From NCBI GenBank assembly GCA_964645535.1, contig CAZYCQ010000083.1, positions 1 to 10,196 on the forward strand: a stretch of 10,196 nt of DNA. Reading direction: 5' to 3'. Every line of letters begins with the position of its first letter. The first letter of the stretch is position 1. The notes beneath the pieces were generated by a model. The model saw nothing but the letters and a program-made list of their open reading frames with translations, was not told the origin of the DNA and did not search any database. Shown here in pieces: positions 3,623-9,367 of the stretch. A program made the translations under genes and the position numbers. The stretch comes from an uncultured archaeon (lineage in GTDB: Archaea; Asgardarchaeota; Heimdallarchaeia; Heimdallarchaeales; Kariarchaeaceae).

Positions 3623-4243
3623 TCAAATCAGTATTATGTGTTTCAAAACATCTGTTTTCACTTCAATTCCGAATTTCGTTGCAATTTGCTCCAACCATGC
3701 ATGCTCTAGTATATCTAGACCTATTACTATTTGATAATCGTACTCTGTTTCTATGAAAAACTTCGGCATTGATGAGAGCAATGCTGTCCATAGCAATGTT
3801 TCTATTTCAACCCCAATGGCTTTCGTCAAACTTTCAAGTACACCTGCAATTTCCGCGTGAATGGACACGCTGATTTCCTTCCCTACGGGATTGCTCTTTT
3901 CTGACTGGATTGTTTGTGGAAAGGCCATGTCATACCTTACTGACGCAGGATCTATTTTTGATAGCTGCACGGCAGTCCATAATCGCATTCTTATGTATTC
4001 CTGTAGCTTGCTTCTTTTCTTGTCCAATTTTCTGGCGAGCTGATTTATTTCAGAAGGTTGAAGATGGAGAGTTACCCATTGACGAGGTCTCATGATTGGA
4101 TGGATGGCCACAAAAGCCTGAATGGTCATCTGTTCTATAAAAAGAGGTAAATCATGTTTGACGGAGCTGTATTTTCCTTGCAAAAACTGCAAAAGACGTT
4201 CCCATTCATTCATTCTGACAGAGAGGTTATGGGTTACACTCAT
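3623..4243 (-). CDS. Hypothetical protein with 3-4 tandem ribbon-helix-helix-like repeats; putative DNA-binding regulator
   Basis: Repeated strand-helix-turn-helix pattern: aa ~4-44 (THNLSVRMNEWERLLQ..), 54-92 (RQWVTLHLQPSEINQLARKLDKKRSKLQEYIRMRLWTAV), 122-155 (KEISVSIHAEIAGVLESLTKAIGVEIETLLWTAL), 170-204 (YQIVIGLDILEHAWLEQIATKFGIEVKTDVLKHII). GGAGG SD upstream; overlaps upstream gene by 17 bp. CDS is solid, fold call is pattern-based. Confidence 0.65.
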   Translation of the reverse strand: MSVTHNLSVRMNEWERLLQFLQGKYSSVKHDLPLFIEQMTIQAFVAIHPIMRPRQWVTLHLQPSEINQLARKLDKKRSKLQEYIRMRLWTAVQLSKIDPASVRYDMAFPQTIQSEKSNPVGKEISVSIHAEIAGVLESLTKAIGVEIETLLWTALLSSMPKFFIETEYDYQIVIGLDILEHAWLEQIATKFGIEVKTDVLKHIILI

Positions 4244-4454
4244 GGAATTCCTCCAGTCTGATCAAATTTGAAAAAATGTCTACAAGAATTGAATAGACAG
4301 CTACAGCAGAAGTATCAGGCCAGGGAAATGTACTTGCAGGTGCGGATAAACGATGGGCTGCTACCCAGAGGGGCTCAGAATTGGTCAGAAGACGACTATA
4401 TTTGTCCCGGATCTGGTTAAGCCTCATCCTATAGGTTTTCAGGGTTCTTCCCAT
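4227..4454 (-). CDS. Small PolB2-associated protein (arCOG07300-like, 'MGRT' family)
   Basis: ATG at 4454 is preceded by a perfect AGGAGGT SD (4461-4467). Sequence MGRTLKTYRMRL...AHRLSAPAS...VYSILVD...RLE resembles, from memory, the small helical proteins encoded beside archaeal polB2. Confidence 0.75.
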   Translation of the reverse strand: MGRTLKTYRMRLNQIRDKYSRLLTNSEPLWVAAHRLSAPASTFPWPDTSAVAVYSILVDIFSNLIRLEEFHECNP

Positions 4455-4692
4455 GAACTGACCTCCTTTCAAGTCTATCAATTCGTTTAAACGCTTCTAC
4501 CATTAGGGTATAGAGAAAAACCTGCATGGCTTCCTTTTGCGTTAGGATTTTCTCCTGCTTTAGGAATCTTTCCTTCAACCCCTCAAGAATCTTCATGGTT
4601 TCATCAAATGCCTTCAAATCGTTTTTTTCCCTTATAACAGGTGCATAGTGTTGTTGAAATTTTTCCTTGAGAATATCCCATTCACTCTTCAT
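4429..4692 (-). CDS. Small helical protein, divergent paralogue of the adjacent MGRT-family protein
   Basis: GAAGGAGG SD; overlaps the radA stop by 11 bp and the next gene by 26 bp. C-terminal VFLYTLMVEAFKRIDRLE aligns without gaps to VAVYSILVDIFSNLIRLE of 4227..4454 (7/18 identical). Confidence 0.7.
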   Translation of the reverse strand: MKSEWDILKEKFQQHYAPVIREKNDLKAFDETMKILEGLKERFLKQEKILTQKEAMQVFLYTLMVEAFKRIDRLERRSVHGKNPENL

Positions 4693-5587
4693 ATTGTATT
4701 TCCTCCTTCATCTTGTGAACTAGATCATCAAAGGAATCGGGTGTCCTATCATTACAGTCTTCAATTCCATTGAAAGTGATGCTAAACCTCCCCTCTGCCT
4801 CAGGAAGATAAGGTGAATCGACAAGTCGTGCTACCGTACAGCTACCTTCTCTCTGCAAGACAATTCTGTGGGTTGTTCCATGTGCCACAATGTTGCCGCC
4901 CACGGCCACCTGCCGTGCTTCACCAAACAGGTTGGACAAATCGGCCATTACTTGATTGGTAACTACAACTGCCCTTGGTTGCTTTTCCGCAAATGCCGCC
5001 AGCTGATTCAGTTGATTGATATGGCGATTCAACAGTTGTTGCCTTTCAAATAACAGATCCTTACCCATGAATTCTGCTCTGAAATTGGCGGTCAAAGAAT
5101 CAACAATTATCAGAATAATTTCGGAATCACTAACTTTCATTACCTCTTCAACAAGTTCCATCTGTTTTTCAGTGCTAGGAGCCTTGCCAACAAATATTCT
5201 GTTCAATATCTCCTGGGGATCAACATCAAACCTTCTGCAGATCTGCAATATGCGTTCTGGTCTGAAACTTCCTTCAGTATCAATGTAAACTGCCTTTCCC
5301 CCGTTCCCTCCCAATTCCTTCGGTAATGTGGCCATAACAAGCAACTGGAGGCAAATTTGTGTCTTTCCTGTCCTGTACTCCCCAAAAAATTCAGTTACAG
5401 CCCCTTGCTCAATACCTCCGCCTAGTATCCGATTAAGAGCCTTACTTCCCGTATCTATTCTGAAAAATTTCTCCCTCTCCTTGAGCACATGATGTGCACT
5501 TTTAAACAGCGATAATACATTGTCTTTTTCAGGTAGAGCTACCTTATCCTCTTTTTGAACTCCTTCCTCGCGTTGCGGCAATGCCAT
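4682..5587 (-). CDS. radA: RadA/Rad51-family recombinase paralogue lacking the N-terminal HhH domain
   Basis: FxxA polymerisation motif (FKSA), TGSKALNRILGGGIE, Walker A GEYRTGKT, YIDTEGSFRPER, Walker B IIVDS, TNQV, GGNIVAH, DSPYLPEAE. Start set at ATG 5587 (GTGAGGA SD-like at 5598-5604); the ORF-track extension to 5653 runs through the shared upstream motif. Confidence 0.9.
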   Translation of the reverse strand: MALPQREEGVQKEDKVALPEKDNVLSLFKSAHHVLKEREKFFRIDTGSKALNRILGGGIEQGAVTEFFGEYRTGKTQICLQLLVMATLPKELGGNGGKAVYIDTEGSFRPERILQICRRFDVDPQEILNRIFVGKAPSTEKQMELVEEVMKVSDSEIILIIVDSLTANFRAEFMGKDLLFERQQLLNRHINQLNQLAAFAEKQPRAVVVTNQVMADLSNLFGEARQVAVGGNIVAHGTTHRIVLQREGSCTVARLVDSPYLPEAEGRFSITFNGIEDCNDRTPDSFDDLVHKMKEEIQYEE

Positions 5588-5623
5588 TGTTGAACGTTCC
5601 TCACATCTTGATGAGATTTTCAT

Positions 5624-8551: not shown

Positions 8552-8560
8552 AAATGTCCC

Positions 8561-9259
8561 TCAAAAGAAATCATTGAGTGTCAACTGCTGAGTAGGTACC
8601 TTTCTGACTGGATTTCCTGAAAATTGGTATTCTGTAGGAGGAAGAAAGGGATGGGAAATCAATTGATCAAGCCAGGTATTTTCAGCTATCCGTTTCTGAC
8701 GTACATGAATCTTGCAAATTGACTGGATAGGATTGTTCTGGGTGACATTGTCTGTCAGAATGATAGTGGCTCCCTTGACGGCCATTTGTTGCAGAAGCCG
8801 AGTTGATTGAACCAAAACAGTTTCAATGCCCGGATAGGAATCTTCCTCGATTGCCTGTCTAAAAAGGGAGAAGAAAGAAGGTGCAAGAAGGAGATGTGAA
8901 GGACCATTGATATCCTTTGCAACGTTTTGTACCAGTGAAAGACTTTGAAGTACTTGAAAAGGACGGGCTAACGATATCCTCTCGAGAATATCAGATGTAT
9001 CCAAATCACCTGCGTATTGATCCAAAAGAAATGGATTGAAAGAGTTGGAAGAATCGATGACCGAGATTTTCCAGTTATGGACATATGCATCCAACAGTAC
9101 AGAATGCATGGCCTTGTTCAATGCCTTGATATCCTCGCTCTCAATGAGATGAACATTTCCGACCAACCAATCCGTAAACAGACGATAAATGCGAGGAAGG
9201 GTTCGAGGGTTAACTTGGAGTCCCTTATTAGACAGAAACGCTGCGGAAACCAGCATCAT
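8561..9259 (-). CDS. Inactivated RadA-like protein associated with PolB2, with C-terminal PIP box
   Basis: RecA-fold remnants VIDSSNSFNPFLL and ILERISLARPFQVLQ (compare YIDTEGSFRPER and ILNRIFVGKAPSTEKQ in the RadA of this window); no Walker A, Walker B Asp lost (LLLAPS); ends QLTLNDFF; 9 bp upstream of polB2. Confidence 0.8.
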   Translation of the reverse strand: MMLVSAAFLSNKGLQVNPRTLPRIYRLFTDWLVGNVHLIESEDIKALNKAMHSVLLDAYVHNWKISVIDSSNSFNPFLLDQYAGDLDTSDILERISLARPFQVLQSLSLVQNVAKDINGPSHLLLAPSFFSLFRQAIEEDSYPGIETVLVQSTRLLQQMAVKGATIILTDNVTQNNPIQSICKIHVRQKRIAENTWLDQLISHPFLPPTEYQFSGNPVRKVPTQQLTLNDFF

Positions 9260-9278
9260 ATCTAGTAAGGTGTCTCAA

Positions 9279-9367
9279 CCATAAAAATCCCCCACGAATG
9301 TTTTGTCACTAGGCAGAGAGAGAGCCTTGTGAAAGTATTCCAAGCTTAACCCCTTTGATGCAGAAAT
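9279..9367 (-). promoter_or_regulatory. Conserved promoter/operator upstream of the inactive radA-polB2 operon (copy 2)
   Basis: CCATAAAAAT (9279-9288), ACGAATGTTTTGTCA (9294-9308), GAAAGTATT-N4-GCTT (9331-9347), TTGATGCAGAAAT (9355-9367). The TATA-like block lies about 22-28 nt upstream of ATG 9259, fitting a leaderless archaeal transcript. Confidence 0.75.

Follow-up and report, generated by a model that had tools for sequence, protein, structure and literature searches.

The window analysed here is an entire contig (CAZYCQ010000083.1, 10,196 bp) of the 3.6-Mb genome of an uncultured archaeon of the Asgard family Kariarchaeaceae (genome G000). It carries a cassette of six genes, all on the minus strand, in two units. 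Operon 1 encodes iRadA, an inactive RadA homologue, and the DNA polymerase PolB2; operon 2 encodes a RadA paralogue without the N-terminal domain (NTD), an 87-aa protein, a 75-aa protein with an MGRT arm and a 206-aa ribbon-helix-helix (RHH) protein. The best explanation of this locus, to which we assign a probability of about two in three, is that the known PolB2 mutasome has been placed under two promoters of a damage regulon of the Sulfolobus type, that is, one activated by an Orc1-2-like protein; this reading comes from the comparison of sequences. The original prediction, made from the sequence of the window, had described six genes in two operons with overlaps and Shine-Dalgarno (SD) motifs, and the open reading frame (ORF) coordinates agree with it: the genes of operon 2 overlap by 11, 26 and 17 nt, and each start is preceded by a GGAGG-type SD motif.

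The two promoters have the same structure. The core AATACTTTCRC, occurring before both operons as the original prediction had noted, is found at 9329-9339 and 5671-5681, the expected number of occurrences being 0.34 even with one mismatch allowed. Each promoter consists of a 20-bp box starting with AATACTTTCR, followed by a second box, GACAAA..CGT, and then by a TATA box, all on the minus strand as the genes. The 20-bp box resembles the DNA-damage-responsive element (DDRE) of Sulfolobus islandicus, a 20-bp consensus of damage genes that is bound by Orc1-2 and required for induction by 4-nitroquinoline-1-oxide (NQO) (Sun 2018, PMC6061795). The DDRE-like box of operon 1 (9320-9339) matches this consensus at 16 of 20 positions, and that of operon 2 (5662-5681) at 15 of 20, the orthologous promoters in G009 and G010 yielding 17/20 and 18/20, respectively. 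The second box, at 9294-9308 in operon 1 and at 5638-5652 in operon 2, is conserved in both promoters of the clade encoding the four-RHH protein. The putative TATA box of operon 1 (9280-9287) lies 28 nt before the ATG of iRadA, a position conserved in G009 and G010, and a leaderless start would be expected for this gene; the putative TATA box of operon 2 lies at 5625-5632. In the whole genome, the second box followed by TATA occurs only in these two promoters.

The 20-bp box is not confined to the window. For scoring we used the S. islandicus consensus from PMC6061795 alone, which is independent of the family promoters, with a threshold of at least 15 matches of 20. This score is reached by 11 of 13 family promoters (10 genomes), compared with 46 of 1612 (2.9%) upstream regions of this genome. 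Across the family, the box is situated 55-95 nt before polB2, iRadA, PPB2 or RadA; it precedes iRadA in G009, G010 and G008, and polB2 in G001, G003, G004 and G007. A strict version of the pattern yielded 55 matches in 12 genomes, compared with nine matches of the reversed control. Nine of the 55 had informed the pattern, and the other 46 had not been used to define it. Twelve of these 46 matches precede four iRadA-like genes (G001, G002, G004, G007), three radA genes (two of G011 and one of G008), a divergent TFB paralogue (in G001 and in G011), and one gene each of the polB2-like (a second such gene in G002), herA-like (G011) and orc1-2-like (G005) kinds; the TFB assignment is weak (E=0.037 to TFIIB plus a zinc ribbon). 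In the genome of the window, the corresponding herA-like and TFB-like genes are preceded by weaker sites, and all of the top five matrix matches are intergenic. The gene classes found behind the family boxes are those activated by Orc1-2 in S. islandicus.

The genome has three orc1/cdc6 genes, located at C50:8128-9348, C12:37921-39123 and C50:17025-18236, one of them initiator-like. All three are outside the window, hence an orc1 gene within the cassette, considered as a candidate, was rejected. In one paralogue encoded on contig C50, the recognition helix reads RKHTQIWE, in agreement with R353-R354-x-T356-Q-V-Y-E of S. islandicus Orc1-2 and with the 1FNN/1W5S group, and 1FNN is the best structural relative of this paralogue; the recognition helix of the initiator-like paralogue lacks this match. 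A variant box (TTCACTTT..CTC) is found upstream of the two non-initiator genes in the majority of their copies, but not upstream of the initiator-like gene, which would be consistent with autoregulation. In genera that yielded no 206-aa protein, the box is present before polB2, iRadA and radA and before herA-like, tfb-like and orc1-2-like genes; the main control is therefore probably exerted in trans, by an Orc1-2-like activator, and not by a LexA-like repressor. By analogy with Sulfolobus, we infer that such a protein binds the Asgard box and that damage induces the genes behind it. Thus, of the suggestion that the cassette is a damage-inducible, co-regulated and self-contained unit, the first two parts are made probable by the shared DDRE-like box, and the claim of a self-contained unit with its own regulator is not supported, the likely activator being encoded elsewhere.

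The polB2 gene (6008-8551) encodes a Dpo2-type polymerase of 847 aa with a degenerate exonuclease domain, an intact motif A and the sequence LTDS as motif C. As in mutasome polymerases, the exonuclease is dead and the first Asp of the DxD motif is substituted. An orthologue is present in all 12 genomes of the family, and PolB2 of 'Ca. Heimdallarchaeota archaeon S012_26_esom' (G009), from the same genus, is 65% identical. The iRadA gene (8561-9259, 232 aa) matches the Pfam family Rad51 with E=0.006 and encodes neither Walker motifs nor an NTD. Its product ends in a canonical PCNA-interacting (PIP) box, QxxLxxFF (8564-8587), conserved in five of five aligned homologues, so that the inactive RadA with a clamp motif next to PolB2 had been recognised correctly. 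In the tree iRadA clusters with iRadA genes of other Asgard polB2 operons. A PCNA gene is present in the genome, and the clamp-binding motif of the complex is supplied by iRadA; the C-terminus of PolB2 carries a weak PIP-like motif.

Of the two small proteins, the 75-aa one (4227-4454) is PPB2 (arCOG07300), with 97.8% in hhalign to PPB2 genes adjoining polB2 in other Asgard genomes. The three-helix 87-aa protein (4429-4692) has no MGRT arm, hence the description of both as MGRT paralogues has to be corrected, as only the 75-aa ORF starts with MGRT. The hhalign comparison of the 87-aa protein with PPB2 gave 29% (E=0.0006); when the hidden Markov model of the 87-aa family was applied to 297 ORFs, PPB2 proteins took 11 of the 12 top ranks, with no single match being significant, and fold searches with the 87-aa model retrieved generic helical matches only. 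These comparisons suggest that the 87-aa protein is probably a remote armless paralogue of PPB2; its family is present in eight of the 12 genomes. The MGRT protein of G045 (locus L048) reaches 262 aa, and five box cores are present at this locus.

The PolB2-iRadA-PPB2 module has been described (Makarova 2014, PMC4104785; Timinskas 2025, PMC11791011), and the latter study modelled a heteropentamer, with PIP boxes mostly on iRadA and with PPB2 duplications where only one copy has MGRT. The locus resembles it in the exonuclease-dead PolB2 with the first Asp of DxD replaced, the Walker-less iRadA with a PIP box, PPB2 with the MGRT arm and the probable second, armless PPB2 copy. It differs in that PPB2 is encoded apart from iRadA and polB2, in an operon where it is coupled to the intact RadA without NTD and to the four-RHH protein, in that the core genes, unlinked in most of this family, nevertheless share the promoter box, and in the weak PIP-like motif that ends PolB2. 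The usual, though not universal, arrangement of the three genes in one operon is not observed, PPB2 being located 1.5 kb past polB2. Of the arrangement proposed as new, the PolB2 core, the iRadA PIP box and the armless PPB2 duplicate have been published (PMC11791011), and the RadA/RHH operon is a clade-restricted addition. Thus there is less novelty in the cassette than first claimed, the polymerase complex being known already, and more interest in its regulation.

The RadA paralogue (4682-5587, 301 aa; the start is backed by the SD motif and by gene calls of 299-301 aa in relatives) retains Walker A (GEYRTGKT), DTEG, Walker B, TNQV and the filament motif FKSA (FxxA), and lacks the N-terminal helix-hairpin-helix domain. 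With all ATPase motifs in place, it is indeed, as was proposed, a RadA that looks catalytically intact and has no NTD; it also has an additional C-terminal segment. The genome has six intact-looking genes of the RadA family, including this one, which groups with three relatives in a separate clade; the tree leaves the origin of the NTD-less clade unresolved. It may, speculatively, join or cap filaments through FKSA and bring the mutasome to single-stranded DNA. The prediction of a complex formed by this RadA, two PPB2 and the 87-aa protein scored 0.00, which is uninformative either way.

The 206-aa protein (3623-4243) was predicted to consist of four tandem RHH units (AlphaFold2, pLDDT 75.6, four strand-helix-helix repeats), supporting the earlier assignment as a multi-RHH protein at the level of the modelled fold. 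The model shows the strand-helix-helix units and the two-stranded, presumably DNA-reading sheet that define RHH domains. Its best structural matches are a chain of the F-plasmid relaxosome (9f0x_E, Z 8.2), single-chain Arc (Z 7.3) and AvtR (Z 5.3), and after these tandem RHH proteins many single RHH domains match; Foldseek with the same model returned nothing at E<=0.001. The likeness to the single-chain tandem proteins (9f0x_E, AvtR of an archaeal virus and single-chain Arc) lies in repeated strand-helix-helix units pairing within one chain, and the difference in four units per chain and no significant sequence match. The gene is found in three of 47 genomes of the order, all from one genus, and in two further relatives. 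The protein contains RHH units only, with no self-cleaving domain, and is at most a secondary regulator; that it dampens the damage response is speculation. The second box is a candidate operator for it. The restriction of this box to the clade with the RHH gene fits a dedicated operator and, equally well, a duplicated promoter.

An observation on another genome concerns the same protein. In G007 (L286:1018-1716), a 114-aa two-RHH gene stands behind a strict box, back to back with a gene of the 87-aa family. Against the profile of the N-terminal half of the 206-aa protein it scores above 500 shuffles, the similarity being weak, and gives a weak hint that RHH genes could have been in the regulon earlier.

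Under the proposed mechanism, the Orc1-2-like protein would bind the box upon damage and switch on both operons as well as radA, the herA-like gene, the TFB paralogue and its own gene. PolB2 and iRadA would assemble on PCNA via the PIP box of iRadA, together with a trimer of PPB2 that may include the armless copy, and PolB2, like Dpo2, would extend primer ends that are mispaired. The PPB2 gene, solitary in other genera, would in this clade have been gathered into a damage-inducible operon with the probable armless PPB2 paralogue, the NTD-less RadA and the four-RHH protein. The NTD-less active RadA would probably act as an inducible filament or mediator subunit alongside the mutasome, and the four-RHH protein may fine-tune both promoters through the second box.

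The genomic distribution bears on these last steps. Operon 2, with its four genes, occurs only in a single clade within one genus. Adjacency of the two operons is limited to two of the lineages examined, in tandem in G000 and divergently in G010, where they share two inverted boxes. Linkage to polB2, whose absence from all relatives would have counted against the original prediction, thus recurs, but it is not general: the operons are unlinked in G009 and in DRR684990, the latter being 89% identical across operon 2. Elsewhere in the family, the genes for PPB2, iRadA, PolB2 and the 87-aa proteins of other genera are scattered over unrelated loci. The operon therefore seems to be a recent and unstable gathering of older parts.

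The most serious alternative, which we hold to be quite possible if short of even odds, is that the additional genes are passengers: the NTD-less RadA and the RHH gene would have been put under a damage promoter by rearrangement and promoter duplication, would be unrelated to the PolB2 complex and would act in recombination or local autoregulation, the second box being a relic of common promoter descent. Apart from the restriction of the operon to one clade and the scattering of PPB2 and the 87-aa family in other genera, this would agree with the rearrangement scars at the locus described below, with G011, where the NTD-less RadA stands alone under its own box, and with the fact that PolB2 does not model with active RadA (PMC11791011). 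On the other hand, five lineages retain the translational coupling of the four operon-2 genes, both promoters retain the second box despite divergence of the flanking DNA, and the RHH gene of G007 is found behind a strict box next to a homologue of the 87-aa gene. The passenger explanation is compatible with the DDRE part of the mutasome-regulon reading and concerns the extras only.

A more ambitious version of the mutasome-regulon reading holds that the Orc1-2/DDRE response works in Heimdallarchaeia, and so predates the TACK-Asgard split, and that the cassette is a two-tier mutagenesis circuit, in which the NTD-less RadA activates or positions the mutasome on single-stranded DNA as RecA does for Pol V, and the four-RHH protein shuts both promoters off. 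In this complete form we regard it as unlikely.

A number of observations weigh against control of the Sulfolobus type. Most strict matches precede unknown or unrelated genes, the polB2 promoter of G011 has no box, and the genomes are related, so that box counts are not independent samples. In other Asgard polB2 lineages, 39 promoters score 13.5 vs. 13.0 in controls, the clear cases being G122, G123 and G313. Class-wide counts of the box are enriched relative to the control in three further families (109 vs. 50, 76 vs. 24 and 10 vs. 5), but among 20 sites sampled in families f3 and f4 no recognisable repair gene was seen, and family f5 has no genome-wide excess (42 vs. 40). The core hexamer is located approximately 30-50 bp before the start of TATA (46-49 bp in the window, about 30 bp in several other family promoters); in Sulfolobus acidocaldarius the core is reported at -44 to -39 from the start site, and with start sites inferred, the Asgard cores lie further upstream than this. 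The wing of the Orc1-2-like protein is RGN and not RGR, retaining one Arg of two; the third paralogue has RGR but another helix, and hence the binding protein is not fixed. Finally, only one clade provides evidence on the role of the second box.

The difference in the spacing to TATA, C instead of G at position 5 and the patchy signal outside the family could indicate that the box is a lineage-specific activator site merely resembling the Sulfolobus DDRE, or that a different factor or a different stress acts through it. We consider this improbable, as both conserved halves of the 20-mer match, in the same orientation and before the same gene classes as the Orc1-2 targets of S. islandicus, and the exact Sulfolobus core is found at some Asgard sites (G122, G090). 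The explanation put forward originally, a self-contained SOS-like cassette where RadA senses single-stranded DNA and the shared motif is bound by the RHH protein as master repressor, has in its favour the intact RadA, the RHH fold, the shared promoter blocks and the adjacency of the operons in G000 and G010, but is very improbable, given that five genera in which no 206-aa protein was detected have the main box before polB2 and iRadA, that this box matches a site shown to bind Orc1-2 (PMC6061795), that the RHH protein has no self-cleaving domain and that the operons are unlinked in G009 and DRR684990.

The cassette had also been likened to bacterial systems. The lexA-imuA-imuB-dnaE2 cassette and Pol V of bacteria (for Pol V, PMC11791011) are inducible error-prone polymerases with RecA-family and small accessory subunits, and the likeness to the locus consists in this combination. 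None of the six proteins matches LexA, ImuB (Y-family) or DnaE2 (C-family), and control here is probably exerted by an activator encoded elsewhere; thus the relation is one of analogy and not of membership. A partial match to peptidase S24 is seen on contig C1, and the LexA negative holds for the cassette only.

The closer comparison is with the Orc1-2/DDRE damage regulon of the Sulfolobales (Le 2017, PMC5817253; Sun 2018, PMC6061795; PMC12490963). The common features are the ANTTTC core and the 20-bp consensus in the same orientation before polB2, radA, the herA-like gene, the TFB paralogue and the orc1-2-like gene, and the Orc1-2-type recognition helix with the conserved Thr. The differences are the Asgard host, C at position 5, the greater distance to TATA, the wing RGN, the TFB paralogue, which in Asgard is full-length and not a truncated TFB3, and the extra box with the RHH gene. 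No ups or ced genes were identified among the Asgard box targets. A literature search, limited largely to freely available papers, found no report of DDRE outside the Sulfolobales.

Whether archaea have a conserved SOS-like response is an open question, Orc1-2 in the Sulfolobales being the only worked-out case, and it has been asked whether Orc1-2 homologues act likewise elsewhere (Sun 2018, PMC6061795). A matching box before the same gene classes, together with an Orc1-2-like protein, makes the Asgard family directly testable. The location of both units behind a probable damage switch of the Sulfolobus type, so far shown to work only there, suggests that this response to damage is of old origin and is common to Sulfolobus and archaea closely related to eukaryotes; if so, an Orc1/Cdc6 paralogue would have regulated transcription upon DNA damage in archaea close to the ancestor of eukaryotes.

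Further genes of the damage response can be predicted from the box. Orphan genes stand behind two of the strongest boxes, one at C39:7534-8829 (431 aa), with the box at an equal distance in G009, and a pair at C55:1594-4828 (631 and 427 aa); with no Pfam match in either case, they are candidates for such genes. A third prediction is the divergent TFB paralogue, which is full-length in C50:11454-12485 (L063), where an orc1 gene lies on either side of it. Three genomes have a box 141-155 nt before this paralogue, which may take the role of TFB3. A Y-family (DinB/Dpo4-like) polymerase is encoded at C10:33498-34652 (L258) and is not among the box matches.

Tandem strong boxes 74-77 bp apart are observed in G000 (C12:34895-34990, L054), G009 (C213:21473), G001 (C81:810-973 and C328:40749-40833) and G002 (C219:4661-4745). 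In G000 and G009, they are directed towards a convergent gene located after Lon, facing its 3' end, and a small zinc-ribbon gene stands back to back with them; no ORF follows on the same strand. A small RNA, a reversed operator or an origin-like site might account for these pairs. No single motif emerged when 40 distant Asgard promoters were subjected to Gibbs sampling. In eight loci of other Asgard lineages (L107, L108, L109, L110, L117, L129, L131 and L132), a different word, AAATT[GT]TCG, occurs before iRadA or PPB2 and is possibly a diverged box core.

Two features of polB2 loci in other genomes should be mentioned. In G044 (L096), and likewise in two P0008-lineage assemblies (L167 and L169), gene calling gives two ORFs for the polymerase. 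In G003 and G004, a gene of 194-208 aa with no Pfam match directly precedes polB2 (L037:5223-5807, L047:8239-8865, L283:251-850), and a homologue-like ORF occupies the same place in G005. This gene was considered as iRadA and rejected, since in G004 the Rad51-matching iRadA is found elsewhere, behind a box.

As for the assembly, one contig of the probable source run, a hot-spring metagenome, covers 5511-8750 with zero differences, and because it bridges the junction between the operons, a mis-join there is ruled out. Between the operons, also on the minus strand, lies the decayed remnant of a 153-aa gene (5812-6007), with stops and frameshifts (tblastn E=3e-7). The gene is unrelated to the cassette and is located 3' of polB2 in G009 and G010; an intact copy, 75% identical, is found on contig C43. 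A diverged direct repeat (2488-2630 and 9990-10134; 82% and 77%) spans the ends of a 170-aa ORF and a glyoxalase gene, and the right end of the contig (9457-9933) is a mosaic of gene fragments found at other places in relatives; the repeat and the mosaic are rearrangement scars around the cassette. Two orphan ORFs (207 and 170 aa, 1428-2564) are absent at the syntenic position in the close relative L163. Finally, a leucine-rich repeat gene (2979-3560) lies on the same strand as the cassette, 63 bp past the RHH gene. Its position is kept in L163 and L170 and not in G010, and it may be the fifth gene of operon 2.

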